Below the pieces are notes generated by a model. The model did no database searches. It saw only the letters and a list, made by a program, of their open reading frames with translations, and was not told the origin of the DNA. A stretch of 63,253 nt of DNA, the filler included, from Reclinomonas americana ATCC 50394 (lineage: Eukaryota): assembly GCA_048213135.1 (NCBI GenBank). It is 17 parts of 17 records of this genome, joined end to end, with 100 filler letters (N's around TTAATTAATTAA, not from the genome) between each part and the next. Parts side by side here need not be neighbours in the genome. Positions count along the whole stretch, not along the records: positions 1 to 4,495 come from AFZH01016839.1; positions 4,596 to 5,611 come from AFZH01016841.1; positions 5,712 to 14,808 come from AFZH01016843.1; positions 14,909 to 17,829 come from AFZH01016844.1; positions 17,930 to 20,158 come from AFZH01016845.1; positions 20,259 to 21,689 come from AFZH01016846.1; positions 21,790 to 23,578 come from AFZH01016847.1; positions 23,679 to 25,388 come from AFZH01016848.1; 9 more parts are not named here. The stretch is one strand, 5' to 3'. Shown here piece by piece: positions 42 to 62,147 of this stretch; position 1 is the first letter of the stretch, and every line of letters begins with the position of its first letter. Made by a program: the position numbers and the translations under genes.

Positions 42-886
42 GCACTCAACAAATACGAGCGCTTCCTCGAAGCATTCAGAGAATTCCGCAGCAAGGAGTT
101 CAACGATGTGCAGGTGAGGGAGACAAAAGGATGCACAGCAATCGAACTGACCTAACTTGCGCTTGCGCTCCCTCTTCCCTCGTACACTAGGCCGTGATCG
201 ACCGCTTCGAGTTCCTGCACGAGAAGAACCTCAGCCTGTTCCACAAGATGCAGAGTCGCGCGCAGCAGGTAACCGAGCTGCAACAGAGGTTAAACACCAA
301 AGTCAAGGTGCGCTGCAACGCGTGCTACAGCGTGGCGACAGAGTCTGGTTCATCTCCCGTTTACGCAGAGTTACCCGATTGCCTTGCTCGGCAAGCACCA
401 AGTGGTCCGCGCGTGCCAGTATCAGGGCGAGTTGCTAGAGACCAAGGCGGCGGAGGTGGAGGCACTGCGCGAGTCCGACGCCCAGCATGCGGCAACCATT
501 TTGAGGCGACTGAATGCTGTCGAGCTGTTGCGTTGGAGGCGCACAGAGAAAAAAGGCAAGTAGCTGTGCGTTCAGCTGAGGTTGACACTGCGTTCTCTCC
601 ATTGCACAGCGCCTGTGACTCCATGTTTGAACTGTGCGAGCGTGCCTCGGTGGTGGTGCATCAGCGTGCACAGGGCCTGGCCGAGATCAAGCCCGAGCAC
701 CGCCGCCGTGAGAAGCTGCAGATCATCGCCAACTTCATCTCGGACCTGGTGTGGATCGAGGGCAAGGCCATGGGCACTCTGCCACCCGAGGTCGACAGCG
801 GTGGATATGGCAGTGGCGCGGGCGGCGGTGCAGGAGGCAGTGCGGCGACCGCGACCGCCGCCGCCGCAGCAGCAGCTGACTATTGA
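42..886 (+). CDS. 3' part of a CCDC42/CFAP73-like (DUF4200) flagellar coiled-coil protein; spliced, 5' end outside the window
   Basis: Spliced peptide KYERFLEAFREFRSKEFNDVQ|AVIDRFEFL...VEL|ACDSMFELC...KLQIIANFISDL. This resembles the CCDC42 family pattern EF..I.EVI.RY..L / QL..I..FI.DL. Phase-compatible introns at 114-191, 308-368 and 527-609; stop TGA at 884-886. Confidence 0.6.
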
Positions 887-984
887 CCCAGTATCTCCCC
901 CAGTATAATACAGAGAAAAAACAGAGAAAAACTCACCACTCTCTTCTTTTGTGTCCTCTTCTTCATTGCTCCCTCCCTCCACGC

Positions 985-3900
985 TCATGAGCGCACTGCA
1001 GCCGCCGTGAGTGGTACTGGTGGGGCGGATGGCGCAGTGGATGCGGCGGCAGAACAGAGACGCGCCACCAGGCCCGCCAGCTGCAGCACCGAGTCGACGC
1101 CCTGCGAGATGCGCATGTGCACAATGCCGATCTCGCGCAGGAGCGCCAGTTGCTGCGCCTCGGAGAGATTGAGATCGCCGCTGCGGTACTCCACCACGCG
1201 GTTCATGGTTTTGATGAGGTCGACGGCGGAGTAGCCTAATAGGAGAAGGGTGTAAAGGGGAAGAGAGTGTGAAGGGATGGGTGAGACGGAGGGTGTGGAG
1301 AAGCAGGGAATTAGGCGGATAAAGAGGATGGGAGGAAACAGATGGACGTGGGGAAGTGATCGGTGAGTGCAGAGGAAGAGAAGCGAAGAGTAGGGGATGC
1401 GAAGGATGGGGGAGGGATGGAGAAGGGGGGACAAGGGGAATGGTGCAGCGAAGGAATGGAAGGGCGTGGAGGGGAAGAGAGAACAGCAGGGAAGAATAGA
1501 GAGGGGGGAGGAAAAGAGTCACATGGAATACGAGAGGAAAGATGCCGAAGGAAAGGGGAGGCGATGGATAAGTAAAGGAAGAGAAATGGTGTGGAGCGGA
1601 AGGAGCGAGGAGGATGGAAAGGGAAGGGAAAGGGAGGAAGGGATGGAGCGGAAGGAAAAGGGGAGCGGAAGGAGAAGGGGAGCGGAAGGAGAAGGAGAAA
1701 GGAACAAAGGGGAGGGGAGTGAAGAGAACAGTGAGGAGAAGAATCGAGAGTCGAGACTGAGACTTGAGAGAGACTGACAGACGCTGATAGAGACTGAGAG
1801 AGGATTAGTGACAGAGACTGAGATATTGAGGGAGACATGAGAGACAATTAGAGACTGAGAATGAGACTGAGAGACTGAGAAACTAGGAAACACTAAGAGA
1901 GACTGAGAGAGAGAGAGAGACTGAGAGAGAGACTGAGAGAGAGACTGATAGAGAGACAGAGAGAGACTGAGAGAGAGACTGAGAAAGAGACTGAGAGAGA
2001 GACTGAGAGAGAGAGAGACTGAGAGAGAGACTGAGAGACTGAGAGACTGAGAGACTCAAGAGTAGGAGAGTGTCGACACTGCAGAGTACACACACGAGCA
2101 ACAGAACAAGTTAGAGGAGTGCACAGACTCGGGCAAGATGGACTGGCAAGCAGCAGAGCTCGACAAGACGCGACGACTACTACCGGCGCAGCAAACCCGA
2201 GAGAGAAAGCGTTGATCGTCCTTGCCCTCCTCACCTTGTTCATACAGCGATGACATGGTTTCCAGCGCATCCTTCAACTGCCCTCGCAAGCACTGCTCAA
2301 GGATTTCCTTGACTGCGACTGGCGGCGGTTGATCGCACACCTGCAAAGCAATAGGGAGATATGAGAACTGACGCTCCTGTACTTTCTTCTCCAAGCATTC
2401 ATCATGTCGCAGCGTGTCTTTAGCCACTCAATTCAGGCTCACACATCAAGACGCATTCACACTCCGCTGCGCATGCACAAACATTTTCTAACTTCACGGT
2501 CTCACCCAGTCTCTCTCTCTCATACTCTCTCTCACTCTCCGCCTTCTAACTCAGTAATCCTGATAAGTATCAACCCTCAATACAAAACAACTGCATTCTG
2601 TGTCTGCGCCTGGCATTTTTCCCTCTTTGTTTCCCGCTCTCAGGTCTCGCAAACCTCCCCGCAACATCCAGCCATACTCTCTCACTCTCCTCATCACAAA
2701 CGCTTGAGTGCACGAAGAAACACTGCTCAGACCGATGAAGGGAGGATCCAGGGAGGCGAGATGTTCAATAAAGAACTGGGAAAGGTTGATTGGTGCCCTT
2801 TCTCTCCTTCTCTCTTCGCGCTGTGCCCGTCTTTCTGTCTCGTCCTCCTCCGCTTGCCTCTCTCTCTCTCCCTCAACTCCCACCTCTCTCTCCTCCCCTT
2901 TTCCCTCCCCCTTTTTCCATCTTTCTCCCTCCTCCCTTCTGCCCACCTTGAACACATTCTCCGCAGTCACAATTCCAAACCCCGTCACCGTTGACTGCAG
3001 GCTGTTGAGCGCATTGCGCAAATCACCCTCGGCCGAGAACAGCAGCGCCTCAAAGCCATCGTCCGTGCACGTCACCTGCACGACAAATGGGTGAGCCGCC
3101 GACCTGCATGACTGGCGAGAGAGAGATAGAGAGCCCCGCGTACATGCTCCTGCTCGACAACTTCTGTCAATCGGTGCAAGACTTCGTCGTCGGCCAGTCG
3201 TTGGAAGCGGACCACGGCACATCCTGTGCGATCACTCGGTTCAGCAAACAAGACTGTGGCTGTGAGGCAAAAGCGTGAGGGACGCAACGGCTCTGAATCG
3301 GCTCAATGACTTTTGTGCTCGTGTTGCAGGCGAGGGCGAAACGCGTGGTCGACGAGAATTGCTCCATGATGCGACGCAGCGCCTGCTGGCTCTCCTTGGT
3401 CATACTGCGGAGTTTGCACGATCAGCGGTTAAGGCACAGAAGAGCAGAGAGCGGCGCAAAAGTGTCACCTGTCGGCCTCGTCCAGAATGATCAGCTTGTG
3501 ACTGTTGCCGGGCAGTGTGACTTTCTTCTGCGCAAACATCTTGATCTTGCCGCGCACCGTGTCGAGTTTTCTGCGAGACGGTGAGCGAAAGTAGAAGGAG
3601 AGGGAGAAAGGACAGTGAGTGGCACGTACCGGTCATCAGAGGCGTTCAGCTCCAACACGCCCTCCTTCAAGCAGTGTGCGACGCCGGCTCCACTATGTAG
3701 AGGGAAAGGGTGAGACGAGGAGATGGACAGGGGAAGGAGACGGCGCGACGCAACAGCTGCTCCTGCGGTGTACCCTCGCGAATCAGCGCCTTTTCGTAGA
3801 TCTCTCGGGCCAGACACAGAATGCTTGTTGTCTTGCCGATGCCGGGTGGACCCTAAAGAGGTGGGAGGGATCAGAGAGGAACAGTGAACAAGAGAAAGAG

Positions 3901-4176
3901 AAGGCAGAGCAGAGTGATTGAGTGCGTGGGAGAGAGAGAGCGAAGGTAGAGCAGAGCGAGAGTGTATGTGCATGCGTTTGCGCTCGCAAGAGAGAGTGCA
4001 CGCGCACGTGTGCGTGTGCGTGTGTGTGAGAGAGAGGAATGAGGGAGAGAGGGCGCGCTCTCACCGCCAAGATAATGTTGGGCACATTGCCGTCCTCGGC
4101 AATCATCTTGAGGCGCTCCACGGCGTCCTCGTTGCCGACAATGTCGCGAAGGTAGCGAGGTCGGTACTTTTCCACC
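985..4176 (-). CDS. RFC2: Replication factor C small subunit (human RFC2 / yeast Rfc4 type), multi-exon; first exon not resolved
   Basis: Motifs in order: [15 protein letters not shown] (Walker A), [93 protein letters not shown]. Confidence 0.95.
1750..2057. repeat. (GA)n/GAGACT microsatellite in an RFC intron
   Basis: Repeated GAGAGACT units. Confidence 0.9.
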
Positions 4177-4495
4177 CTGCATGAAGGCAAGGGAGAAGAA
4201 GGGAGGGAGAAGAGAGAGAGAGAGTGAGATGCAAGGAGGCGATCAAGGGAGAGGGAGGGATAGGGAAATGGAGAGACTCCAACTGCGAAAGTGCTCAACT
4301 CAATGCACTCCTCAGGAGGTGGTGCGCGGTGGTCGGGGAATGCGAGAACATATGTGATCAGCATGATCGAGGCTCGAGAATTGGAGACAGGGGGACTGCA
4401 CAGAGACTCCAAGACTGTGTGCCTCATGGAGTATGCAAACAATATGCAAGTGGAGACAATGGGGCGCAAGAGAGAGAGAGAGAGAGCAATCGGAG

Positions 4496-4595
4496 NNNNN
4501 NNNNNNNNNNNNNNNNNNNNNNNNNNNNNNNNNNNNNNNTTAATTAATTAANNNNNNNNNNNNNNNNNNNNNNNNNNNNNNNNNNNNNNNNNNNN
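4496..4595. other. Artificial assembly gap spacer N44-TTAATTAATTAA-N44 (first of 16; others start at 5612, 14809, 17830, 20159, 21690, 23579, 25389, 29294, 38093, 40547, 41794, 43334, 44857, 46192, 48098)
   Basis: Identical 100-nt construct each time; the 12-mer gives stops in all six frames. Confidence 0.98.
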
Positions 4596-4596
4596 A

Positions 4597-5576
4597 CCAC
4601 CACCCGCCGAGCAGGACGCCGAGGTCGACGTAGCCGCCGTCCCCGCACTTGGCATTCGCCGAGCAGCTGCACCCTCCGCCCCGCCCTCCTACGCCCTCCC
4701 CGTCGCCGTAGAGGACATGTACTCGGCCGGCGACGCCGGCAGTGGCGCCGCCGCCTCTGTCGAACAGCAGTTGCACACACCGCGCCTGATCTACCCAGGC
4801 GACGTGGTCCCGCGCGGTCCCATTGACCTCTCCCTCGCCATGTACGAACCCGTGGCGCCCATCGCTGCAGGACCCGCCGGCTACGTGCGTCACCACACCG
4901 GTCCCGCCGGTCCCGACATGTGAATAAAATTGTCCACCTCGCTGCGTGTATTCGCGCGCGCGCATGCACTTTGTGCGCAACAGCAAGGCGCAGTACGACG
5001 ACGACTACTCCGACTCCGACTCCGACGCTGCACCACTGCTCTCCTCATCAGCAATGTCCTCACCACCGCCTCCTCCCGCCAACCGCACTCGTCGCCTGCA
5101 CTCACTCGGCGACAAAGACCCTGACAATGACGATGACGATGATGGTTTGTCTCGCTCCACTGCTGCCTCTTCATCGATGCTGGGCTTGCCGGCGGTGCTG
5201 GTGCAGAACCCGACTCCGCGCTCCTCGCCGATGCGTCCTGCGCGCACCGCCTCGTCGTCGTCGTCCTCGTCGCAGGCTGGTGGTGTAGCGTCGCCGACGT
5301 CGGGCTCGTCCTCGCCCGTGTCGCCGACGTTGGCGGCGGGTGCGGGTGTGGAAAGGGCGGGAGAGGGCAGTCCGTTGGGTGCGTCGCGAGCGCTCGGCGA
5401 GCCTCGTTGCGTGCGTGGGAGGGAGGGAAGGGGGAGGGGAAGGGAGGGAGGAGGAGGAGAGAATGGAAGGCAAAGAGAGAAGATTGTCAATGACTGAGAC
5501 TCACATGCAGAGGGAGAGAGAGAGAGGAGAGGAGAGAGAGAGTGAGTGAGTGAGTGAGAGAGAGAGAGAGAGCAGA

Positions 5577-5611
<35 letters not shown>

Positions 5612-8600
5612 NNNNNNNNNNNNNNNNNNNNNNNNNNNNNNNNNNNNNNNNNNNNTTAATTAATTAANNNNNNNNNNNNNNNNNNNNNNNNNNNNNNNNN
5701 NNNNNNNNNNNGAGAGAGAGAGAGAGACATGGTTTGTAAGTGAGTGGAAGGCAAAGATCCCTTCGAGAACAAGACAAGATCGCGCTGCTGTGAATGGACG
5801 CTCGTTTCGCCGCTCACTTCGGCAATTACAGAGGACCAGGAGCCTGGCGGCAAGCCTGCACCCTCGCCGACATTTGCACTGTCGCCGGTTGGTCAGGGTC
5901 GCCGCTTGTCGGTCACGATTCCTGTATTGCCGCTGATGGGCGACTCGGCAGCGGCGGCGGCCGGTTCAACAGCAGCTGCAAGTGCTACAGGTGAGCAGAA
6001 GTGGCTGAAGTTGCTTCATTGCCTGCATGTTCTCTCCTGGCTTCGTTTCTCCTTCTATTTGCCTGTCATCCAGCAGTCCAAGTCTGTCTCTGAATTCTCC
6101 GTTCGTTCACCGTTTCCCTCCTTAGGTTCCCCCACTTCCACCTTCACATCTTTCTTTCGTGCTCTCTAACTCTTATCCTTCTTGTATTATCCAGTCTCTT
6201 CCTTCACATTTATCTCTCCCTCGTCTCTCTTTGTCATCTTTCCTTGCATTCCTCTTCCACTCTTTCTACTGCATGATAACCCTCTGTTCTACTTCTCTTG
6301 ATTCCTTCTCCTCCTATCTTCCCCGCTTTCCCACTTGCCACTTTCCTCCTTCCCTCTTCCCGCTCCCCCTCTCCCCTTCTCCTTCCCCCTTCTCCCGTCT
6401 CCCCCTCTTCCCCTCTTCCCCTCTTTCCCTCTTCCCCTCTTCCCCTCTTCCCCTCTTCCCCTCTACCCTTCTTCCCCTCTTCCCCTCTTCCCCTCTACCC
6501 TGTTCCCCCTTCCCTCTTCCTCTTCCCCCTCCCTCTTCCCCCTCCCTCTTCCCCTCCCTCTTCCCCTCCCCCTTCCCTCTTTCCCTCTTTCCGTCTTTCC
6601 TTCTTTCCTCTCTTCTCTCTTCCCTCTTCCCTCTTCCTTCTTTCCTCTCTTCCCTCTTCCCTCTTACATCTTCCCCCTCCCTATTCCCCTATTCCCCTTT
6701 CCCTTCCTCCTTCCCCCTTCTGCTTTTCCCCCTCCTCCCCCCTTTCCCTCCTTCCCCCCTTACCCTCCCTTTCCCTCTCCTCCCTTCCCCTTCTCCCCTT
6801 CCCCCCTTCCTCCCCTTTCTCCCCCTTCTCCCCTTTCTCCCCCTTCTCCCCCTTCTCCCCCCTTCTCCCCTTCATCACGCAGTCGCCATCACCCCACCCG
6901 TCCAATCCCCCCAAGCAATGTCACCAACCAGCCCCTCCGACACATACGCCAATGGCGAGCCGGAGATGGCAGCCGACGAGCGCGACTCGCTCATTTCGCT
7001 GGTCACCAAGAAGCGCACACATCCTCTTTGTTGCGTTTAAATATCCGAAAGGTTTGATGACTTGGGAGGGTGACTCAATGTCTGTCCACAGGCACCACCC
7101 GTGTCCTCCTCAGTGTGGTGTCAACTGTGGCCTTTCTGCTGGTGGTGGCGATTATCGCGTTCTCCATTCTCGAATCGGACTCGAACAGTTGTGTGAGCAG
7201 AGAACGGTCTTTTTTTGCGCCCAGCTGCTCACGATCTTGTGCAGTCGACAACAAGACTCCCATCCAGTTCGACGACATTTTCAGGAGCGACCTCAAGTCC
7301 TCCACCAAGTGGTTGCAGTGGACGCCGGCAGGTGCTCCTTTCCCTCCTTTTGAAATCCCTGAGTCCCTTCTTGCTGACTGCATGGCAGGCGACGGAGTGC
7401 TCTTTGACGGTGACGGCGTAGAGAAGTTTGATTTCTTCACGAATCAGAGTCAGGTAGTCGTGTCGGACATGACGATTCAGGTGAGTGCGTGGAAAGGAGG
7501 TACATTCATGAACAGACGTCCTCACCACCATAATTTCCTCCCAGGCACTCCTAAATACAGCATCCTACTCGGCCACCTTCTCACCAGACGAGAAGTTTAT
7601 CATTTTCGCCACCGAGACGACACCAGTGCGTGCATTCTGCACGGCAGGAGTGCAACTCTCCTCTCACTTCGTGTTCTGCAGATCTACCGCCACTCGACGT
7701 TCAACCGGTTCTACTTGTACGATTTGAGTCGCCCCGCCGAGGTGGTACCACTCACGCCCGACGCACCGGCCAAGATCGCTGTGTGGTCGCAGGCCTCGGA
7801 TAAGATTGTGCGTGAGCTTCACTGCTTTATTCTCATTCATAATCTTTGCTAACTTTGCTCAAATCAGGCTCTGGTGGTGAACAACAACATTCGTGTGTAC
7901 AGCGTCACGTCGCGAGCATTCCTGCCCGACTTGACGACCGACGGAACGGCCGAGACCATTTTCAATGGCGTGCCGGATTGGTTGTATGAGGGTGAGTGGT
8001 TAAAGGGAAGGGGATGAGAGGGAAGAAGACAGGAGAAGAAGAAAAAACGAAGGAAGGGGAATGGTGGGAGTTGTCGTCAGAAGACGGAATGAGAGGAAGT
8101 GAGAGGAAGAGAGGAAGCGAGAGACAGGCAGATAGAGAGAGTGAGGGAGAATCGGCGTGAAGAGAGAAGGCACATGAGAGAGTCCGAGCGGCGATGTTGA
8201 GGCATAGAGTGTGTGTTCGCGAGAGAATGAGGGAGAGAAAGGGAGAGAGAAATAAGAAGGAGATGGGAGTTGGCGATAGGAGAATCAATGAAGACAAGAT
8301 GTGAGAGGCTGGGAGAGAGCTGGAGGGTGGGAGTCGGCGTCAAGAGAAATACCACATGAGAGAAAAGCGCAGCAGGAATGAGAGGATGCGGGAGGAAGGG
8401 TTGAGAGGCAGATTGGAGGAACGAGAGAGAGTGGACGAATGTCGTGAGTGGCTACAATTAGTCGGTTCTGAGTAGGAACCTTGATTCTGGTATTGAGTAG
8501 ACGACGAGTGGAGACCAAACGAAAATTCCTTGCTTTTTCGTTTGTTGCAGAACTGCATGATTCGAGCAATTATGTTTGGGCGCTCTTTGCACATCGTCTG

Positions 8601-11600
8601 ACTTTCCTCTCATTGTCGCAGAGGAGATTCTGGCTGCGGATGTCGCTCTGTACTGGAGCCCGTCCGGAACTCGCCTGGCCTACATGCGATTCGACGACAC
8701 GGCGGTGAAGACGTTTGACATTCAGCGGTTCTACAAGGACAATGCGTACCCGCAAGCGCAGTCGTTCAAGTACCCGACGGTGCGCAAGGGAATAGGGGAT
8801 AGGAGGAGGAGGAGGAGAAGGAGAAGGAGGAGAAGAAGACTAAGAAAAGAAGTTTAAGAGGAGAGAGAAAGAATGTCACGAGGAAAGTGAGTGCACTCTA
8901 CATTTCTAAATCTTGTTGCCGCGTGCGACGTTGCTAAATATGCGGGCCCGTAATCGGTGTCTCGCATGTGCGCGTTCACCTCCCCACTCACTCTCTCTCT
9001 CTCTCTCGCAGATTCACTGTTCGATCGCTGTCAGTTTGCTCCTCTGTAGGGGAAGCCTCGCCGTATCTTCTCTGTCCCTCTCTGGCGTGCGCACTCTTGC
9101 AAAGTCATTCACAACTCAGCTCTCTGTGCTGGCCATGGGTAGTCCCAGTTCAAATCTGTGTTCTATTTCCCATCCTTTCTTGTCTATCTCGCTGTCTCTC
9201 TCACTGTGTGGCACTGGTCTCCCTATCTCTGCATCGTATTTTTTCTCTGTTGCAATTTCCCCCCTCTCACTTCCCTTTTCCCCTCATGGCAGGCCGGCGA
9301 AACCAACCCATCCGTCACAGTCCTGTCGTACGACTTTGCCACGAAGACTACCAGCTCACTGGTTCGTCATCTTTGAATGCAATCTCCAAGCCGCTCTCTG
9401 TTGCCGCTCACACTTTCCCGTATTTCCCCTATAGCTCCTGCCCTCCACCTGCACCTACGCCTATGGGATTCAGTGGTTTGGCGACTCGAGCGTGATGCTG
9501 CGCTGCATCGGGCGCATCCAGCACGTGGAACAGGCCGTCATGTACGACGCAACTCCGTCGTCCATGATCTCGCCGCGTCGTATCACGGACCTACAGCGCG
9601 TGACGAGTGGATGGGTGGAGGTTCTGTCGCCTGTTCACTTTCTCTCTCGCTTCTCACTCACCTGCTCTCTCATCCCTTTGCCCTCCAGGACACGTGGGCC
9701 GACTCATTCGCCGAGACGGGAACGTCGGCCAACTTGTTCTTGCAGCGCGTGGTTGTCAACGATTACTACAACATTGCGCTGTTCTCCGCCTCCACTGGCA
9801 ACCGCCTGCAGACGCTGACGACGCACAACTTTGATGTGATGCAAATCGTGGGCGTCGATTTCGCCAGCAAGACGGCGTTGCGTTGATGGAGAGAGAGAGA
9901 AGCAGGTGTCCGTGCGCGCTTACTTTTTATTGCAGTGCTTATATCGTCGCCGAAGTGCCGTACCAGCGCTCACTTTATGCGTTGCGTGTGTGGCGTTGCG
10001 AGCCGTTTCCTTCACTTGCTCGTCCTCATTATTTCATTATGCAGTGTGTCGTGGAGCTCCTTCCCACCCACCGTCACCGTGGTGAATGACCCCGACGGTT
10101 GGTTGTCGGCTTCGTGCGGCAGCAATCTCCGTTTCTGCGTGGTGACTACGAGCACTTCGACGCGCGCGCACAAGCAATTCGCCGTGAACATGAGCTTGCT
10201 GAGTACGGTGCACGTGTTCACCGACAATGCGGATGTGCAGTCGCGTATCAATTCGCTGGCCATGCCGAGCAAGCAGTTCTTCTCGGTTCCGATTAATGGG
10301 AGAGGTGTGGAGGAGGAGAAGGGGAAGGGAACGGGAGAAGGGGAAAGGGAATTGGAGAGAACGTATGTCTTGTTGTTTCTGTTGTTTTGTTGTTGTGGCA
10401 GTGGTGGTTGTGGTGATTGTGGACGCGTGTACGTGTGTGCGTGTGTGTATATGCGAGCATGCGTGTGCGTTGTGTGTCTGTATGTGTGCGAGATTGTGCT
10501 TGTCGATGCTGTTGTTGTAGTTGTTGTTGTTGTGGTAGTCGTGGTGGTTGTGTGACGGTGTATGTTCCCTGGTGCGTGTATGTATTTATGGGTTGTGCGA
10601 TGTCGTTATGTTGTGGTTGTGCGAGATGGTGTTCTGCTGTTGTTGATGTTGTTTATTTGTGTGGTTCTGGTGGTAGTATATCTGTATGCGTGTATGTGTG
10701 TGCGTTTGTGTGCGTGTGTTGTGCGAGTTGCTTCTGTTGTTGTTTCTGTTGCTTGTTCGCGCGTTTGTGCACTGTGCGAGATTCTGTTGATCTCAATAGT
10801 TGTTTTGTTCCATGATCTTGTAATCTTGTGACGCTGCACCCATTGCGTGACGCTTACAAGTGAGTCGTATATTCGCGTGACACCTCTATTCAGTTGTGAG
10901 ACGCTACCCTTGGTGCTTGTGTGAGCTTGTTGCGCCACAGAAATTTGTATCCTGCGCGATGATATTCTCACTTTCCTCGTGTTCCTTCTCTCTTTCCACT
11001 CTGTTGTGAATCGCTTCACGCTATTCGTGTCTCTGCAATCTACTGTCCTCACCCTCTTTCTTCTTACCCATTCCCCTTCCCTGTCGCAGACCTCAACGGC
11101 TGGATCCTGACACCTCACGGCTTCAATCCCAACAACATGCACCCGCTGATCATCTACGTGTACGGTGGACCCGGCAGTCAGACCGTCATGGACACCTTCC
11201 GCGGTGTCTCCATTGATGAGTGGCTCGCCTCCAAAGGCTACATTGTGGCCTCCATTGATGCAGCTGGCACAGGCGCGCGGTTCGTGCACTCTTCTCCTGT
11301 GATGGAGTGCGCGCACTTTCTGTATTCTCATTGCAGTCGTGCGTCGCAGTGGCTGGAGCTTCCTCACCAGTGTCGCCAAGAATCTCGGTCTGCAACAAGT
11401 CAAGGATCAATCGGCAGCTGTGAGGTTTGCAGTGTGAAGTCAAGTGCGATGCGAGTAGCACTGTTTCTCACAGGTGTATAATGCAGCGCTCTCGGAAACA
11501 AGTTCTCGTTCATCGACACGTCTCGTGCGGCTGTGTGGGGATGGGTTGCGTGATTGCTACACCATGCACGCATGCACGTCTCTCTTTTCCCTTTCTTCAT

Positions 11601-12794
11601 TCTGTACTTCCCACTGTGAGAAGATATTGACAAGAGGAGAATGAGAGAAGGAGACAGAGAATGACGACTGACTGGTCGTTTCCCGTTTCCTCACACTCGA
11701 TCACTCTCGCTGTTTTCTCGACTCCCCCCCGCCCTCCCATGTCCCTGTCCATTGTCGTCTCTCTCATCCCTCGTCACTCTGTCCTCTATGTCTCTTTCCT
11801 GAGTGTCATGGCAACTCGTTGTCGGTTTCTCTCGCTCTGTGCTTCTCGTATCCTTTCGGAATCTGTTTCTCTCTGCGCTCTTTTTTTCTCATTCTCCCAC
11901 TCTGTGTTTCTCGTATCCCTTCCGAATCTCTTTCTCTCTGCACTTGTTTCTCACCTGTTTCTCCACGTTGGTTTCTCCCACTCTGTGTTTCTCGTATCCG
12001 TTCCGAATCTCTTTCTCTCTGCACTCTTGATTCTCATCTGTTTCCACCGCCCTTTCTCTGTCGTGTCAAGTTTTGGCTCTATTTTTCTCGCTCTCCTGTC
12101 TCTTTCTCCCATGCGCCGTTTCTTCTCCATCTCTCTGATCCCTCTCTCGCATTCGTTCTCTCTATATATTGTCTGTTTACTCACTCACTCGCTCACTCAC
12201 TCTCCCTCTCTCTCTCACGCACTACGCACTCACTCGCTCTCTCTCTCACGCTCTTCAACCTTTGTCTTCACTGTCTCTCCACCTAGCCCTCTGTCTCCCA
12301 CCCTCTCATCTATTCCCCTTTCCCCAACAGAGCTTCGGCGGCTACATGACGTTGATGTGCCTGACGGATCCCAAGACGCCGTTCAAACTCGGTGTCAGCG
12401 TCGCGCCCGTGACCGACTGGAACTATTATGGTTTGTGTGATATATAACCACGCACCTCTGCCACTCCTTCCCTCACTCCTCTTCTTCAGACACCTACTAC
12501 ACCGAGAAATACATGGAAACACCGCAGACCAACGCCGTCGGCTACTCCAGCACGAGTGTGATGACGCGCCTCGCCGCCCTGCCATCGTTCACGCCGCACC
12601 TCCTCCTAATTCACGGAACCGGCGACGACAATGTGCACTTGCTCAACAGTGCCACGCTGGTGACGGATTTGGTGGCGAAGAAGGCCGACTTCCGCCTCAT
12701 GTACTACACCAATCGCAATCACTCGATCGTGGGCGGCAACAGCAGAGAACACCTCTACGATCTCATGACGGATTTCCTCACGCAGAACTTGTAA
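4597..12794 (+). CDS. Dipeptidyl peptidase IV family (S9B) type II membrane peptidase with a long disordered N-terminal tail; start codon probably in the gap
   Basis: TM VLLSVVSTVAFLLVVAIIAF (~7.1 kb), IYRHS, FNGVPDWLYE|EEI, WSPSGTRLAY, YP..GETNP, VYGGPGSQ, catalytic GW|SFGGY, APVTDW..YDT.YTEKYM, IHGTGDDNVH, NHSI; stop TAA 12792-12794. Upstream exons (4597-4919, 4984-5405, 5832-5990, 6883-7029) join in phase, but their assignment is less certain than the catalytic part. Confidence 0.9.
6330..6872. repeat. ~540-nt homopyrimidine tract (TTCCCCTC-like units) in a DPP4 intron
   Basis: Almost purine-free C/T run on the + strand. Confidence 0.9.
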
Positions 12795-12829
12795 TGAACT
12801 CATCGAGGTTGTTTGGTATGAAAGGCAGA

Positions 12830-43913: not shown

Positions 43914-44381
43914 ATGCTTTCTCTGAGCCGCGCTCTTCCTCTTCTCTGTCGCCGCCGCTTCTTCCACCACCGCCAATGCGCCAATCAGCTGCTGCTTGTG
44001 CGACCAGAACCGGCATCGTTTGAGTACAACGCCGAGGCCGGCACTGATAATGTGTTTATGCACGATAAGCAGGGCGATGTGGCGGAGAAAGTTGTGTGTG
44101 TAAGAGAGAGTGAGTGTGAGAGAGAGAGAGAGAGAGATAACGTGCAATCATCTTGCAATCAGTCGTGCAATCATCAGTTGCTGTTCTCCTCTCTCTCAGT
44201 CGTCACTTGCCTCTCTCTTTCTCTTTCCCTTCCTCTTCCTCTTTCTTTTCTTCCACCGCCAGCAATGCGCCAATCAGCTGCTGCTTGTGCGACCAGAACC
44301 GGCGTCGTTTCAGTACAACGCCGAGGCCGCCACCGATAACGTGTTTATGCACGATAAGCAGGGCGATGTGGCGGAGAAAGT

Positions 44382-44426
<45 letters not shown>

Positions 44427-45923
44427 AGCGTGCAAACATCTTGCAATCAGTCGTGCAATCATCAGTTGCTGTTCTCCTCTCTCGTCATTTTCCTTCTCTT
44501 TCCCTTCCTCTTCCTCTTCTTCCACCACCACCAATGTGCCAATCAGCTGCTGCTTGTGCGACCAGAACCGGCATCGTTTCAGTACAACGCCGAGGCCGGC
44601 ACTGATAATGTGTTTATGCACGATAAGCAGGGCGATGTGGCGGAGAAAGTTGTGTGTGCACAGAGAGAGTGCGAGTGGCCTTCGTTGATCTTGCAATCAG
44701 TTGACGAATGCATGCTTGAGCCTCGTCCTCCTTCTCTTCTGTCTCCCACAGTTGTCAGTTGTCATGCAATCGTTATCTCTGTCACGATTCGCGACTGCAG
44801 TCACCATGTAGTGCATGCTTTCGCCACACTCTGCCGCTCTCTGTTCTCTCTCTCTCNNNNNNNNNNNNNNNNNNNNNNNNNNNNNNNNNNNNNNNNNNNN
44901 TTAATTAATTAANNNNNNNNNNNNNNNNNNNNNNNNNNNNNNNNNNNNNNNNNNNNTCTCTCTCTCTCTCTCTCTCTCTCTACCATACAGTTGTCTCTGC
45001 ATCACGAATCTGTGCAAGTAGTCGCTGACGTGGCCAAACACTTCCCTAATGCATTCCTTGTCATCTCCCTTTCTCATCCTCTTTCCCCCCTTTCCCTTTT
45101 CCTCCTTCTTGTCCCTCTACAGGCATGCATCGAATTCGAACGCCTTCACCGCGCGCTGACCGACCTCAAAGTGCACACCAAGGTGTTCCCCAATCCACCC
45201 GCCGACGGCACTCCCGACGCCATCTTCCCCAACAACTGGTTCTCCACGCATCGGTCCTCCGAGGGCGGATCTGGCGTACTACTCCTGTATCCCATGTGCC
45301 ACCCATCGCGACGGAAGGAGGTTAAGCCGCGGTTGCGTGCGACAATTTATGCAGTCCCTCCTTTCCCACCGCTCTCATTATCCCTCGTTCGACAGCATTG
45401 TCGAGGCACTGAAGAGAGACAACCACTACTCTCGTGTGCGTGACTTTACAAAGTTTGCCGATCAAAACATGTTCTTTGAGGGAACAGGTTCGTCGGCGCC
45501 TCATGAGCATGTGTGCTTTTGATATGCTCACGCCCCCCCATAACAGGCTCGTTCGTGATTGATCGACAACACGGCATGTTCTTCGTACTCGAATCGCCGC
45601 GCTCGAATCTGGAGTTGGCGCGACAGATTGTGAAGCACTTGGTCAGTGACGGACAGGCGCCAAAGTTGCGAAGGAGTGAGAGGCTGGGAGGCTGCTCGTC
45701 AACGTGCTGTGAGCTGATGTCTCATTTTGGTCTTTAACGTCCTCTTTCCTGCAGCTCACTCCACTCCACGATGAACCTTGTTATCTACGATCTCTCGTTG
45801 TCCATGTTTTCCTGTTTCATTCGTCACACACTTCCCGCTCTTTGGCACACCTCATTGTTTGCAGTTTACCTGCACTATCCTGAAATTGACCTCACACTTT
45901 GCCATGTGCCTCTTACTTTCTTT

Positions 45924-49658: not shown

Positions 49659-49784
49659 TTCACACACACAAAACTCACACATGCGCACACAAGTCATCAC
49701 ACATGCACACATTCATGCACACACGCACACGCACACGCTCTCTGCCAAGCAAAGGAACGAAGAGAGACACAACGAGAGGCTGGG

Positions 49785-49895
49785 GTGACGCAACGGAGGC
49801 TCAGTCATCGCGGGTTACCGAGTGGGTTACTCTGGCAGGGGGAAATTGCCAGCCGTCGTAACCCTCCCTCACCGCCAATCACCCCGCCATCTCCT
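49785..49895 (-). promoter_or_regulatory. Putative ADA2 promoter: CCAAT box, GC box, three GTAACCC motifs
   Basis: CCAAT at ~49875, CCCCGCC at ~49882, GGGTTAC/GTAACCC at ~49812, 49824 and 49858; about 150-230 nt upstream of the ADA2 ATG. Confidence 0.4.
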
Positions 49896-50082: not shown

Positions 50083-51639
50083 TCAGCTGCGTGCTGCGGG
50101 CTTCACAGGACGCCGCTGACCGTCTTCCCCGTCACTAGCCTCGTCGTGCTCCTCCTCCGGCACATTCACCAGCGTAGTGGCGAACGGTGTCGACACCAGG
50201 TCCGCCTGGCGTTGGCGCCACGACATGCTTTCTGGTGGCACCGGCGGCACAAGCGGCGGCACCAGAAGGCCTGTCCCCGCTGGGTGGCGCGCATCGTCGT
50301 CGCGATCGAGCGAGTGAATTTTGTACGCGCGTTGCTTGGCGTCTTCGTCGTCTGCAGCATCATCACCGTGTTCGTGGTACACCTCGGGAAGGAACACCTC
50401 TGCGTTATTCAAGCGTGAGTGAGGGCAAGTAAGTTGTACGCGAATGCACACTACACGCATGGACCGCAACTCGAGTTGGCCAGCTGATGCCGCGCGGCCG
50501 CCACCGCCTCGGCAATCATCTCCTGCTGGATTTCGTGCTCGTCTTCCTCGTCCTCGTGTTTCGGCTTGCACCACGGCAGGCACATGCAGCAGGCCCATCC
50601 GAGGTACTTGCGCAGTCGCGGGTAGTGCGAAATCACTTCGTAGGTCTGCTCAGACGGAGTGAGTTAATCGTGTACACGAATGCAGGTCGTCCACGCATGC
50701 GGTCGACCTACTCACCTGCATGACAAACTGGAGGTACGAGCGCGAGTGAAAAGAGAGACGCATGCGAATGAGATTTGGAAGAGACAAGAAAGACAGCGCA
50801 AGCGGCGTCAGGATTCCTACCTCCGCCAAGAAAACTGTGACAAAAGGATGCAGTGAGAAACCACGTCACAAACATGAACAAAACAAAACACTCCTAACGC
50901 ACCTCCGCTGCCGTACACCAAGACTGCATGAAACCAATAACAGAGTGATGAGCATGTGCATGCATTCACATTGCTCTATTCGCTTCGTTTCGTGTCTTGT
51001 GAGACGCAACTGATGCAGGTCAGTACGATCAGCAGATTGCTGAAAATGCTGGCCTCCGCCGGCAGCGTCTCCATCTTCAGACTCATGCCGATAAACATGA
51101 GAGACCAGAGATCCATCTGCGCAAACAATGAAAATGCGTCAGCCGACATCAACTCAGATTGCCAGTCTTATGTGGACAAACCAGCGCCTGCGTGCAAATG
51201 AAACAAGATGAGTCAATCAGAATCACGTAGCGCAATGCACCATGGCCAGCGACAGCGAGCACACACCGCCGACTGAAGTCGCTGGTCGCTGAGTTTAGCG
51301 AACGGGCGAATCTGCAAGTGAGCCACCAGGGCCAATGTGATCACCACCTGCGCGTCACGCGTGAGAAGCGAAAGCAACAACAACATCTGCTTTCCTCCAG
51401 TCGCTTTCCTTACCATGCCCAACACGAGCTGCAAGCTGGATCGGACACCTACATGGTGAATAACATTGAGCAGCAACATCTCTCACTCTGTACTTCGCAC
51501 AATGACATGACAGGCTGCTCTCTCTCTCTCTCTCCGTGTGTGTATGTGTGTGTTCGTGCACGTCTATGTCCTTTCTTTCCCTCTCTTCCCAATTCCACCA
51601 TTCCTCCATCCATTCTCTCTCTCACCTCTCTCTCTCTCT

Positions 51640-51708
<69 letters not shown>

Positions 51709-54700
51709 CTTCGACCAGCTCACCAATGACAACAAGCGCGCTGGCCAGGATGAGCTTGCGGAAGGTTTCGATTGCTTCCCAGTACTGCAGGAACAGTTGA
51801 CAACAAAAGTCAGCGCAAGTGAAGCATCGCGTCAACACGCGTCCAGAATGAAAGCACCTCAGCACCAGGTCTGTGTGGGCGCAAAGAAACGATGAGCACC
51901 TTGTCATATCAGAAGCGATGCACTCAGCCAACATGCATGCAACTCACCGGTAGGCCTCGTAGAAGAATCCCCACCTCTTCTCAAAAGCAGGTTCTCGCAG
52001 CTGATGTCTGTTGCGAATGGTAAAGATGATGATGAAGAGCGGGAAGCCAAGCGGGATGAGTCTGCGCAGCACGCATACACGCACAGGAGGTCAGCCACAG
52101 TGGACTGAATAGCCGAAGGCAAGAAGTATAATGAGACGTACGCCATCATGGTGACCACCCAGGGCAGCTGGAGGATCCATTTTCTGCGAGCGACGCACAA
52201 TGAGGAGATTATTCGACACTGCGATGCAGTTCGCGCGAATGAACGCAACGAATCAAAGCAGCGGTACGTCAAGTCTGCACAGACAGAGAGGCGAGTGAGC
52301 AACAAAGAACGAGAGCACACCACAGGACCACACAGCAGCGCAGTACCAACCATTGTACAACCACTGACCGTCGTCCAGAGTCAAGCAGCGGAAGTACGAC
52401 ATGAGAATGACCGACGTGCCCGGATACGACAGGAAGAACTGAGAAAGGATAAGTGAGTCAGCAAGACAATGACACACATCACTCGCAAGTAATAAGAACT
52501 CACAATCAAAAAGGCGCGCTGCACAAAGAGCTCCTTTGGCGACAGCACATGGTCATGCCGTTTCACAACCGTCGTCACAGTAACCGTGGCCTTGATGAAT
52601 GTGCCATTAGGTGCCATGTTTTGCATCTCCTGTGACTTTAGCTCTCCGTCGCCCTTGTCACTTTCTCCACCGACATTCGCCACCACCTTGCCGTGACTCG
52701 GAGTCTCGCCTGACCATTGCTCACGAGTGAGAGACAAAATGATCATGTAGTTGCATGAAATGCTCGACAACACTCACCATCCGAGTGATCGGTTTCATCT
52801 CCACCGTCTGCTGCGTGCGTGTCGCGCTCCACTCGCGTGGAACCGAGATCACTGTGCTCGACAGAGTTTGGCCTCAGCGACATCCACCGCTGCAAAGCGC
52901 AAGTGTGCGTTAGTATCTTGTCCTTTCCACCGCAACACCTCCGTTCCCCATCGTTCACCTCCCGATCTGGCAAAGACGACGCAGACACAAAGTGCGCAAT
53001 CGTCCGCGGCTGGTCGTCCGAGTGACGCATGGCGAAAATGGCACTGTGAGTCGCCGGACTGGTGAGTCCATGCATGCCGGGGTCTGGATCCGGAGCGACC
53101 TTTCCAGAGGCCTCGGCGGCGGTGAGTGCCAGATGATGCGGAGTGGTGGCGTCTGCGCGCGACACAAACTTTCTAAATTGCTGCGCAGATCGATCGGTGT
53201 TCTCACACGCAAGCGCACCTTGCACGTGGTCGTCGTGGTGAACGGCCATCGTCTCAACTCCATCGTCACCAACCTTGCCGGTCAGCGCCAACTGTCCGTG
53301 CTCGCTGTGCGCGTCGTCGACGCCGCCCTCGGGAGTCGTGTCGATGGGAGTCACGGCTGCGGTGGATGCCGCCTTGCGGCGTATGCAACGTCGAATAAAG
53401 TTGAGGACCGCGGCGCGCGCTTTAGGCACGCGAATCAGCATGAACAGGCCGAGAAGACCGATCGCCAGGAACGGTGCTGAGGGAATCAACTGTGGGGTAA
53501 CAAGGAAAGTGTGAGCGCGGCGGGAGCAAAGCAAGTCTCAAACACCCAACATGGATCAATCTTGCACATTCGCATCCTTACGAGGTCCTTGTCTCGTCTC
53601 CATACCTATGTTTACTCCTCTTACTCTTCCTTTTTTTCCTTTTCATCTTGTGTTCTCGTTCTTCGTGTGCCAGCTACAGTCTCTTCCAACAGCTCGACAA
53701 TTTACTTCTCTTCTCCTCCTCCCCTCTCATCAATACATCGACCATGCTCACTCTTTCCAATCCTAATCCCTTCCCATTCCCAATCAATAATCATTTCCTC
53801 TCTCCTTCCTCTCTCTTTCCTCTCTCCCTCCTATCCTTCCTCCCTTTCTTCTCTCTCCTCTCCCTTTCCACCCCCCTTCCCCTTCTCCCTTCACCTTCCC
53901 CCTCGCACTTCCCCCTCACCCCTCTCCCTTCCCCCCTGCCCCCTTCATCTTTCCTTCTTCTGCGACCACGCACATATAGCTTGACGAGGTAGTTTCCACT
54001 TCCAGGAACGATGCATGGCAGCGGAGTGGCCTTAAAAATGTCCAGGTTGATAAAGGAGAACAGACGCGTCACCGACAGCCACCTGTCACCAAACACGTGA
54101 GCAAGTGAACGCCATTTCTACTTCTACATAAAGGCGACGGAAAGCTCACCCGATTGGCCACGACACTTGATAGTTTGGTAACTGCGCAGATAGGAGAGAA
54201 GAATACGCTGTCAGCACAACACCTTCCACGACCGCCCAGCACACAATCCCACATCACTGTCGCAGTACCTCATAGACCTGCAAACAAACAATACAACTCA
54301 TGAGCACCCATGTTCACGCCACGCCATTGCTTGCTCAACCAACACGCACCATCTGAATGTACGAAATAATGATGCTGGTGACGACGGCGAAAGCGGGCAT
54401 TGAGTAATCATTAAATCGTTGTCACGCACAGCACATGCAACACTCACCGGACTTTGATCATGGCACCCTATTGGCAACAGACGCAAACAAGTGAGAAAAC
54501 TGCCACTCTTTGTTTACGTCATGGACGAGCACGCAACAGAAGTCCTCAAAAAGTAGAAGAAGATCACCACACCAGTGATGATAGCAATGAGGATGATCAG
54601 GGTGACCATGGAGTTACCGGCGGTCGGACATGCTGTGCATTGCAAATGACACAATGAGTGCACATCAGAGGATCAGAGCGCACACTGCAGCGAAACGCAA

Positions 54701-60700: not shown

Positions 60701-62100
60701 CTGTGTGCACGTGCAATCAGCAATGGTGGCGAATGATGAACGGTGGCACACAAAAGAGGACCCACCTGGTTGGCTGCGCTGTTGCCGTTGTACACAGTGA
60801 AGATATTGCCGGTGGCATCGCGGAACACCAAGTGGCTATAATTGGGAAACGTGCGTGCCGGCGTGTCGCTCGTCGGACTCACGACTTGCTTGGTGACGGC
60901 GTACGTATTCAAATCCACATATTGGAAACTGTTGAGTGCAGAGCGAAAATGTCAGGCGGTGCAATAGAAGTTGACACACGAGCTCGCAAAAACGAGACTC
61001 ACAGGCAGTCCGGTGACGACACCCACGCGCTGTGGACGGCAGACGGAGTGTTAGAGTTCACGAGAAGATAACCTGCTGCTGAGTTTCTAGGTCTCGACGC
61101 ACAAATTCTCATCGTTGCTGATCACCACTGCGCCGTATGCATCCGTTTCGGAGGTGAGTTCCACGCGAGTGAGAGCCGTGCCCCAGGCCTGCAAATAAAC
61201 GTAGCCATGCGGTTCCTGATCATCAAAGTCCCACTACGCAACGGAAACACCCGAGTAAGAATCAACTGCGAGCCCGGCAGCTGTCGCGCACGTACTCACC
61301 GCAGCCAGATACACGATGCGGGTGGAAGGCGTAATGGTGTTATCGTTTCCATGATCGTCCTGTCCTCCGTAGACAATGGCTGTGGGGAGGTGGGTCAGTT
61401 TGAAGCGAGGTCAGCTGCCGACTGATGCTAACAAGATCGCACGATTTGGTTGAGCATTCTTTGCAGCAGCGTCGCAGGTCACTGTATGGAACAAAAAATA
61501 GTCGGCTGCTGTGTGTGGTAGGAGGAAAACTCAAAAGGCACGCATACCAGAGATCCAGATGGAGGCGCTCTTGGCAGAGAGCGAGCGCGGATAGCAGGGC
61601 ACCCAGTATCGCGCTCCGTTCATCGGAGGAGAAGGAGAGTTTGCCGTGTTGTACGACCAGTACAGAAACGAAAAGGTTGCGCTGTCGATGGCGGCAATGT
61701 AGGTTTTCACCACCGCTGCAGTGATCTGCTCCTCGTCAACATCGTTATCCTGTGAGACCGTTGGCTGCGATTGGGTGGACTGTCAGTCACGATAAGATAG
61801 CGTCTAAGGAAGTATGTATGGACACGAACCATGGTATTGTCCCACCATAATGTCTTCTGAGTCGTACCGGCCACCACAAACATTTGTGAATGTGCATGAT
61901 AAACAATGAAATCTGGATGTGAAGGGGCCGAGCAGTGAGCGAATCCACACAGCGTATCGAACACTTACGTCGCAGGTGCTGCGAACCAGCCGTTGTCGCT
62001 CTGTTAGTATCGGTGGACATCAACTGGCCAGCCTTGTCGCGGTTCAATCCGTTTGCAGTGAGTCGCTGGCGAGAGTTGATGGGTGAGACAGCTGATGAAT

Positions 62101-62147
<47 letters not shown>

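Follow-up and report, generated by a model that had tools for sequence, protein, structure and literature searches.

A seven-nucleotide 5' splice site, GTTGCGT, recurs throughout a 63,253-bp stretch of DNA from Reclinomonas americana ATCC 50394 (hereafter the window; eukaryotic, 53% G+C, with very numerous short introns) and, judged from the sequence, very probably marks genuine donors that form a distinct and abundant class. In the introns predicted or placed by homology here, this heptamer coexists with donors of the canonical register, GT(G/T/A)NGT, which prefer a G at the last exon position (-1). The initial annotation of the window had listed 20 donors reading GTTG(C/A/T)G between 527 and 45337 and had described them as the common GTGCG and GTGAG donors carrying one extra T, which moves the usually conserved G from +5 to +6; it attributed them to a bulged register in routine use, to variant U1 or U6 small nuclear RNAs (snRNAs), or to altered recognition proteins. 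All 20 hexamers occur where they had been placed, the minus-strand coordinate being the first base of the donor. GTTGCG-type donors were also identified outside that list and range (for example, 35079, 50470, 51010, 52249, 59677, 62275 and 62388), so that the class spans the whole window, to 62388.

Protein collinearity fixes or supports 10 of the 20 listed donors, namely five in a GH30 glucosylceramidase-like gene, three in a gene for a DPP4-type S9 peptidase, and one each in the genes for an RFC small subunit and a beta-carbonic anhydrase. Genes were named from Pfam matches on long and short open reading frames (ORFs), and the exons are too short for junctions to be placed that way. The junctions in GH30 were placed with a protein-profile-to-DNA spliced aligner whose knowledge of splicing was confined to a GT or GC at the start of the intron and an AG at its end. 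The GH30 profile comprised 48 homologs; the initial query, a 61-aa exon, gave a single match, which then served as the query. The resulting gene model has 17 introns, and its 418-residue translation is collinear with the family consensus. Its donors include four GTGCGT, four GTTGCG (14007, 13817, 13539 and 13277) and one GTTGAG (13436), the remaining eight being GTTGGT, GTTTGT, GTTCGT, GTACGT, GTCGCA, GTAAGA, GTGAGG and GTTCTC, one each. Thus, all five sites previously annotated in this gene were recovered, and they account for 5 of its 17 donors. A single relative, P0103 (166 aa), yielded the same last five introns. Forbidding the GTTG(C/A)G donors cost the alignment 9.1–18.4 score units, compared with 5.1–17.4 for the other 12 donors. 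The gene is also extremely dense in introns, with 17 in approximately 1.25 kb of aligned coding sequence (12875-16013, minus strand), most of them 55–70 nt long, and it contains tiny exons of 16, 17, 23 and 24 nt (14246-14261, 13924-13940, 14473-14495 and 15643-15666, respectively).

The DPP4 gene was aligned with a profile of 40 bacterial-type homologs and with an 868-aa close relative, P0323. Both alignments place a GTTGCGT donor at 11545, within the nucleophile motif, and a tblastn match with P0001, a cluster-mate of P0323, stops at 11544, immediately before this donor. The two alignments differ at the other two sites. At 9981, the donor found with P0323 was passed over by the bacterial-type profile, which preferred an intron at 9990-10056; at 9877, the donor chosen by the profile was replaced in the P0323 alignment by a GC donor at 9880, 3 nt downstream, in a poorly conserved stretch. 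The DPP4 intron lengths are bimodal, about 60 nt plus four introns of 513–786 nt (7992-8621, 8780-9292, 10305-11089 and 11545-12330, plus strand), the last of which is full of CT-rich low-complexity sequence. The gene product itself (6918-12794, plus strand) is closest to bacterial S9 peptidases of the Bacteroidota type, with approximately 50% identity over the last exon, and one relative (P0001 and its cluster-mate P0323) reaches 63% identity; on the basis of these matches, the bacterial-like DPP4 could be an old transfer or could reflect sparse sampling of eukaryotes.

In the RFC gene, the exons that flank the donor at 3288 align with residues 113-150 (ending in IEPIQS) and 152-176 of the solved chain 9uiq_B, and the split codon encodes the single residue between them. 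The other listed RFC donor, at 3754, lies inside a lineage-specific insertion, on which homology is therefore silent. In the beta-carbonic anhydrase gene, the match to positions 2-22 of the Pro_CA hidden Markov model (HMM) ends on the last residue before the donor at 41532, and the exon preceding the listed donor at 40813 starts at position 42 of the same model. The exon upstream of the donor at 45332 matches positions 28-90 of the DDAH_eukar HMM, up to residue 68 of the 69 in that exon. Taken by their sources, four further listed sites (7030, 19572, 45332 and 3754) are backed by a donor-blind gene parser (see below), which called 11 of the 20 overall, and two more (41724 and 40813, the latter running into a gap) by the frames of the beta-carbonic anhydrase examined by eye. 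At the last four (527, 5406, 44091 and 16544) the hexamer is present, but either no convincing acceptor follows it or the sequence runs into repeats or gaps. The junctions within the motifs GW/SFGG, IQS-R-C and WNM/VLD, on which the initial annotation had relied, were all reproduced as donor positions by collinearity.

The abundance of the class was estimated with a Viterbi gene parser that combines codon usage, an explicit intron-length distribution, a 12-nt acceptor matrix and a bonus for a CTNAY branch motif. The intron composition model was trained without the first six intron bases, and the only donor knowledge was GT. The explicit length distribution took the place of a geometric one, with which 13 of 29 validated introns had been recovered; in cross-training, with one validated gene used for training and the other for testing, 11–13 of 17 and 6–7 of 9 introns were recovered. 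When trained on both genes, this blind parser called 200 introns, with GTTGCG as the commonest donor hexamer, followed by GTGCGT (11), GTTTGT (10), GTGAGT (10) and GTTCGT (7). The hexamer GTTGCG occurs 55 times on the two strands, a count attained by none of 100 shuffles that preserved dinucleotides (36.65 ± 5.72), and 18 of its occurrences were called as donors, compared with a base rate of 2.75% (p = 4.4e-15). The comparison with independent positional base frequencies, for which the initial annotation had called, gave 18 GTTGCG donors in the blind parse where 0.85 are expected, and 7 among the homology-validated donors where 0.46 are expected (Poisson p = 5.5e-7).

Under a strict intron penalty, the parser called 159 introns in the real sequence and 10 in a reversed-sequence decoy, including 17 and 0 with GTTGCG, respectively. 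Of the 159 donors, 72 have G at +5, 22 read GTTG(A/C/T)G and 65 have neither. Many of these 65 are probably mis-set boundaries, since the parser has no means of deciding between adjacent in-frame GTs. In a donor-informed parse, which uses a learned hexamer table and hence is not an independent test, GTTGCG starts 24 of 188 introns. The blind parse uses 15, and the informed parse 20, of the 30 GTTGCGT heptamers in the window as donors; GTGCGT occurs 94 times in the same sequence. The homology-validated set consists of 32 donors, 17 from GH30 and 15 from DPP4 (from 7332 onward), of which 20 have G at +5, 8 read GTTG(C/A)G (7 of them GTTGCG) and 4 have neither: 13026 (minus strand, GTTCTC), 14148 (minus, GTCGCA), 7332 (plus, GTGCTC) and 9621 (plus, GTTCTG). 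From these counts, we estimate that the class makes up between about 14% (strict blind parse) and 25% (validated donors) of the introns in the window. Position +3 is a purine in most eukaryotes. Among the validated donors, 17 of 32 have T at this position, in GTTGCG as well as in GTTCGT, GTTTGT, GTTGGT, GTTTGC, GTTCTC and GTTCTG, and +4 is mostly C or T. This general preference for T at +3 had been overlooked in the initial annotation: GTTCGT, GTTTGT and GTTGGT have it and yet retain the G at +5.

Apart from their donors, these introns resemble the rest. Their removal restores the reading frame and collinearity with homologs in the GH30, DPP4, RFC and beta-carbonic anhydrase genes. The 3' ends of the 18 GTTG(A/C/T)GT introns in the blind parse comprise 16 CAG, 1 TAG and 1 AAG; 17 of the 18 have a CTNAY branch motif, whose median distance from the 3' end is 18 nt; and the median length is 65 nt, compared with 67.5 nt for GTGNGT and 64 nt for GTTNGT introns. 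By these features, the class consists of ordinary short GT-AG introns of the U2 type, mostly 53–87 nt long, that contain a CTNAY branch motif and usually end in CAG. Mobile introns (introners) were considered and rejected: in a comparison of the interiors of 22 GTTGCG introns, no similar pair was found at E <= 0.01, and these unrelated interiors indicate that the class is not a family of introners. Among 163 introns overall, there were 21 similar pairs, 20 of them between non-GTTGCG introns, and the matches displayed span 13–21 nt. A U12-type origin was likewise rejected. The U12-type consensus combines the donor RTATCCTT with the branch site TCCTTAAC near the acceptor; here, the donor is GTTGCGT, and the 3' ends listed show CTNAY and no TCCTTAAC. 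Separately, four predicted introns of the informed parse start with GTTATC, resembling U12-type GTATC with an added T (24255-24397, 36535-36602 and 44044-44141 on the minus strand and 45780-45864 on the plus strand); no U12-type branch site was found in these four introns, one of which belongs to a doubtful gene model.

The class has sequence preferences of its own. In the blind parse, 15 of the 18 GTTGCG donors read GTTGCGT, that is, have T at +7. At the variable position, 15 of 18 class donors have C, compared with 11 of 28 GTGNGT donors (p = 0.0055), the counts being 15 for GTTGCGT, 1 for GTTGAGT and 2 for GTTGTGT. The last exon nucleotide is G in 2 of 18 class donors as against 27 of 45 canonical-register donors (p = 0.0006). 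Duplex energies were calculated with ViennaRNA duplexfold, with bulges allowed, against the standard U1 5' end AUACUUACCUG rather than the organism's own; the means are -6.68 kcal/mol for GTGNGT, -4.66 kcal/mol for GTT(C/T)GT and -1.07 kcal/mol for GTTGCGT, so that GTTGCGT pairs even less stably than 400 random GT sites (mean -2.64 kcal/mol). The preference for C, the loss of the exon -1 G and the poor energy with standard U1 argue that the class is a discrete signal, more than a relaxed, bulged GTGNGT.

We tentatively favour, with somewhat less than even confidence in the statement as a whole, the explanation that GTTGCGT is a real donor class and that its reader is a variant or second U1-type snRNA. 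The heptamer GUUGCGU would be read as a unit, from intron position +1 to +7, by base pairing with an snRNA whose recognition sequence fits it more closely than does the 5' end of standard U1. The likeliest candidate would be a co-evolved or second U1-type snRNA with a pairing region of approximately 5'-ACGCAAC-3', which exceeds ACUUAC by one nucleotide. This region could form seven Watson-Crick pairs with GUUGCGU and, by bulging one of its own nucleotides, could also pair with GUGCGU and GUUCGU and, through wobble, with GUUUGU and GUGUGU, the common donors of the window. Cleavage would remain at the G of GT, and the CTNAY branch site and CAG acceptor would be the standard ones. Indeed, a near-invariant 7-nt signal without a contribution from the exon looks like the full complement of a recognition sequence. 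Precedents for such matching are available in the accessible parts of a comparative account: the U1 of Entamoeba, with ACAAAC, fits GUUUGU donors, that of Mastigamoeba, with ACGUAC, fits donors with C at +4, and Physarum is reported to have both a standard and a modified U1 (bioRxiv 10.1101/2022.06.08.495308).

A standard U1 probably exists in this lineage as well, because the canonical-register donors pair well with it and prefer G at -1; a model with a variant U1 therefore needs either two U1 types or a single, very tolerant one. A fully developed version, in which GUNNGU donors with the exon -1 G are read by standard U1 and GUUGCGU donors by a second or remodelled U1 that has gained a nucleotide (approximately ACGCAAC), so that two donor codes operate in parallel, is more doubtful. 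If true, U1 and the splice site would here, for the first time, have co-evolved with a change in length, and an additional nucleotide between U+2 and the pairing at +5/+6 would have to be accommodated by U6 and the catalytic core.

Along with the probable presence of standard U1, several considerations weigh against a variant or second U1. The 5' end of U1 ranks with the most highly conserved of RNA sequences, and we know of no length-changing U1 recognition region. The Rfam search detected no snRNA in the window, either at the gathering score or at E <= 1, so that the proposed snRNA is unseen there; at E <= 1, there were only sub-threshold look-alikes of microRNAs and untranslated regions, two of them over the GA/CT repeats that flank gaps. 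Every count is drawn from a single 63-kb window and a home-made parser with the cross-training recovery given above, and the duplex energy model ignores pseudouridine, U1C and other proteins. With the hypothetical partner AUACGCAACCUG, discrimination between the 32 validated donors and 1500 other GT sites reaches an area under the curve of 0.92, compared with 0.75 for the canonical sequence, but this test is circular by construction and is a lead only, and a GC-richer probe lowers all energies. Finally, standard U1 is retained despite atypical donors in Saccharomycotina, Giardia, Trichomonas, Thecamonas and Mamiellales, according to the parts of the comparative account at hand (bioRxiv 10.1101/2022.06.08.495308). 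The evidence for the donor class itself is statistically strong within the window; the recognition mechanisms proposed for it are all hypotheses.

The routine use of a +2/+3 bulge in pairing with standard U1 and U6, in which one U is looped out and G+4, G+6 and U+7 act as +3, +5 and +6, appears less likely than a variant or second U1 but deserves serious attention. The form of the heptamer fits this description: with UU at +2/+3, it falls into line with U1 over the downstream consensus if a single U is looped out; its sequence is that of GTGCGT, a common donor here, with an added T; and its T at +7 corresponds to the T at +6 of GTGCGT, so that the previous description of the class as GTGNGT plus one T, with the G moved to +6, stands as far as form is concerned. 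The length, branch motif and acceptor of the class are also the same as in the other intron classes. In the available part of the survey of human splice sites, this register is counted among those with a single-nucleotide bulge (PMC4856993), and, in that of the comparative account, the 5' end of U1 hardly varies across eukaryotes and is retained in several lineages whose donors are odd (bioRxiv 10.1101/2022.06.08.495308). However, the best duplex with AUACUUACCUG, with bulges allowed, is weaker than that of random GT sites, although the organism's own U1 may differ, and such a weak helix should need G at -1 and A facing pseudouridine 5, whereas the class largely lacks the former and has C at the variable position. 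A bulged register also predicts that GTTGAGT and GTTGTGT are about as common as GTTGCGT, which is far from what is observed. The C bias, the loss of the exon -1 G and the weak U1 duplex thus make the routine bulged register the weaker of the alternatives offered in the initial annotation.

Recognition of the class could instead be largely independent of U1, through protein binding or through later definition by U5/U6 or a changed U6 ACAGAGA box. This is rather improbable, although it would account for the poor fit to standard U1, and the portions of the literature at hand mention U1-independent and U6-defined 5' splice sites (PMC4856993) and name a red alga without the U1 snRNP. The window provides no specific evidence for it. 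When paired by hand, the heptamer shows no complementarity to the standard ACAGA box, either directly or after a shift of one base, and the other donor classes look U1-dependent in their preference for G at -1 and their good pairing.

It is very unlikely that the true donors are GC dinucleotides 3 nt downstream (exon ending in GTT, intron starting with GCGTGC), which would make these GC-AG introns and add one codon to the exon. This reading is always in frame, so that frames cannot exclude it; the aligner substituted the GC donor once GT was forbidden at 13539 and 13277, and the alignment with P0323 chose it first at 9880, in the poorly conserved stretch noted above. However, an extra residue would be introduced at seven junctions that are collinear without it, the five in GH30, GW/SFGG in DPP4 and S-R-C in RFC; the exon end would need an invariant GTT; and +5 after GC is unconserved, whereas T+7 of the GT reading is conserved. 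GC-AG introns were rejected on these grounds, although a GC donor may be used in place of 9877. No more credible is the view that there is no splice-site class and that chance, coding or repeat bias, introner ends or a homopolymer error turning GTGCGT into GTTGCGT produced the pattern: the gaps inside microsatellites do indicate imperfect sequence quality, and GTGCGT is common too, but the shuffles fall short of the observed count, the sites match exon ends defined by homology, the intron interiors are unrelated, and random error would neither strip the exon of its -1 G nor favour C.

The introns of the class and the named genes of the window are listed in Table 1.

Table 1. Named genes and introns of the GTTG(C/A)G class in the window (minus-strand introns start at the higher coordinate)
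Feature	Position	Strand	Donor, length, notes	Basis
RFC small subunit gene	~985-4965	-		Pfam on open frames
DPP4-type S9 peptidase gene	~6918-12794	+		Pfam on open frames
GH30 glucosylceramidase-like gene	12830-16377	-		Pfam on open frames
DEAD-box helicase gene	~24000	-		Pfam on open frames
H-type lectin gene				Pfam on open frames
Beta-carbonic anhydrase gene	40814-41792	-	between two gaps	Pfam on open frames
DDAH-family gene	44538-47069	+		Pfam on open frames
ADA2 gene	~49092-49808	-		Pfam on open frames
RFC small-subunit intron	3224..3288	-	GTTGCGT, 65 nt, splits IQS-R-C	collinear with solved RFC chains; blind parse
RFC intron	3693..3754	-	GTTGCGT, 62 nt, TAG end	donor-blind and strict parses only
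Intron, DPP4 N-terminal region	7030..7091	+	GTTGCGT, 62 nt	donor-blind and strict parses
DPP4 intron	9877..9935	+	GTTGCGT, 59 nt	bacterial-type profile; blind parse
DPP4 intron	9981..10044	+	GTTGCGT, 64 nt	P0323 alignment; blind parse
DPP4 intron	11545..12330	+	GTTGCGT, 786 nt, splits GW/SFGG	profile and P0323 alignments
GH30 intron 16	13210..13277	-	GTTGCGT, 68 nt, splits VIAD/TRNN	profile; P0103; score drop 15.0; blind parse
GH30 intron 15	13309..13436	-	GTTGAGT, 128 nt	profile; P0103; score drop 18.4; missed by parsers
GH30 intron 14	13472..13539	-	GTTGCGT, 68 nt, splits DWNM/VLDE	profile; P0103; score drop 15.0; blind parse
GH30 intron 12	13751..13817	-	GTTGCGC, 67 nt	profile alignment; score drop 9.1; blind parse
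GH30 intron 10	13941..14007	-	GTTGCGT, 67 nt, CAG end	profile alignment; score drop 15.6; blind parse
Intron	19572..19633	+	GTTGCGC, 62 nt	donor-blind and strict parses
Intron, outside the initial list	35016..35079	-	GTTGCGT, 64 nt	blind, strict and informed parses
Intron, outside the initial list	35311..35375	-	GTTGAGT, 65 nt	gene parse
Beta-carbonic anhydrase intron	41468..41532	-	GTTGCGT, 65 nt	Pro_CA HMM and frames
Beta-carbonic anhydrase intron (probable)	41624..41724	-	GTTGCGT, 101 nt	frames by eye; not called by parser
DDAH-family intron	45332..45395	+	GTTGCGT, 64 nt	donor-blind and strict parses
ADA2 intron	49742..49794	-	GTTGCGT, 53 nt	donor-informed parse only
Intron	50400..50470	-	GTTGCGG, 71 nt	gene parse
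Intron	50924..51010	-	GTTGCGT, 87 nt	gene parse
Intron	52184..52249	-	GTTGCGT, 66 nt	gene parse
Intron	54468-54537	-	GTTGCGT	donor-informed parse only
Intron	54633-54701	-	GTTGCGT	donor-informed parse only
Intron in predicted 49-intron gene	59611..59677	-	GTTGCGT, 67 nt	gene parse
Intron	61189..61242	-	GTTGCGT, 54 nt	donor-informed parse only
Intron	62221..62275	-	GTTGCGT, 55 nt	gene parse
Intron (less certain)	62317..62388	-	GTTGCGT, 72 nt, AAG end	gene parse

The window contains 16 gaps between 4496 and 48197 (e.g., 4496-4595, 5612-5711 and 40547-40646), each of 100 nt and consisting of the six-frame stop linker TTAATTAATTAA between two runs of 44 Ns. Nearly all of them adjoin (GA)n or (CT)n microsatellites, most lying inside such repeats, and several of them break up genes, for example, within a GH30 intron (14665-15485) and in the beta-carbonic anhydrase gene. 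The best named matches of ADA2 are from green plants and algae (58–67% identity), and its profile aligned to one exon only. An open frame of 572 codons on the minus strand (21847-23578) specifies a protein of low complexity in which PRRRQRNRGG-like units recur, and one of 422 codons lies opposite it in the same DNA. Another stretch of the minus strand, 54444-63020, was joined by the parser into one gene with approximately 5.1 kb of coding sequence and 49 introns and without a Pfam match on its long frames; this predicted gene may encode a repeat-rich surface protein or a beta-propeller-like protein.

Splicing has few features as constant as the G at +5 and the set distance from the cleaved G to the nucleotides paired with U1 and U6. 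A genome that places this G one nucleotide further on in between one-seventh and one-quarter of its introns, within a near-invariant heptamer, is a natural experiment on the tolerance of the register, and bears on the co-evolution of splice signals and snRNAs, for which few cases have been reported. It is also a warning for gene prediction: donor models that treat positions as independent or demand a purine at +3 would miss these exons, given that more than half of the validated donors have T at +3. The class is a case of non-canonical 5' splice-site recognition, of interest for both the evolution of splicing and gene prediction. We found no description of a GTTGCG or GTTGCGT donor class in the literature searched, a search whose coverage excluded most subscription journals, and the genome paper of this organism may already show this donor logo.

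Several known systems share some features with this class. In Thecamonas trahens and Mamiellales, donors are of the form GYGCGY, with C at +4 and an unchanged U1, and donors of the GTGCGT type are common in the window as well; the available sections of the accounts of these organisms mention no GTTGCGT class (bioRxiv 10.1101/2022.06.08.495308). Physarum polycephalum, with its massively expanded set of minor, U12-type introns, at least as described in the part of the report at hand (bioRxiv 10.1101/2020.10.12.336362), resembles the window in having two donor codes side by side at high frequency in one genome. Unlike that set, the GTTGCGT introns have neither a U12-type donor nor a U12-type branch site, and their CTNAY motif and length are those of the other introns.

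As in Entamoeba (GUUUGU) and Mastigamoeba (GUGCGC), many donors in the window have U at +3, a pyrimidine at +4, or both, which standard U1 cannot pair. The accessible descriptions of those two lineages, however, report U1 substitutions within a 6-nt register and one dominant donor, GUUUGU making up 87.9–89.5% in the intron-poor Entamoeba, whereas the donor in the window is one nucleotide longer and stands beside canonical-register donors in an extremely intron-dense genome. Moreover, the matching U1 is described for Entamoeba and Mastigamoeba, whereas that of the class in the window is hypothetical.

Among mechanisms with experimental support, the human bulge +2/+3 register (and with it bulge +3; Roca and co-workers) comes closest. 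According to the portion of the human survey available, the bulge +2/+3 register comprises 68 predicted and 54 curated sites among 201,541 5' splice sites, approximately 0.03%, and non-canonical registers together amount to 2.1% after curation (PMC4856993; Tan et al. 2016). These human sites and the GTTGCGT class are alike in belonging to GT-AG introns with UU after the G, in that dropping one U realigns G and U with C4 and A3 of U1, and in being cleaved at the first G. They differ in abundance, the class in the window, at about 14–25% of introns, being two to three orders of magnitude commoner; in energy, the human sites gaining predicted stability in the bulged register whereas the class in the window is weaker than random GT sites with standard U1; and in that the GTTGCGT class has preferences of its own, C at +5 and no G at -1.

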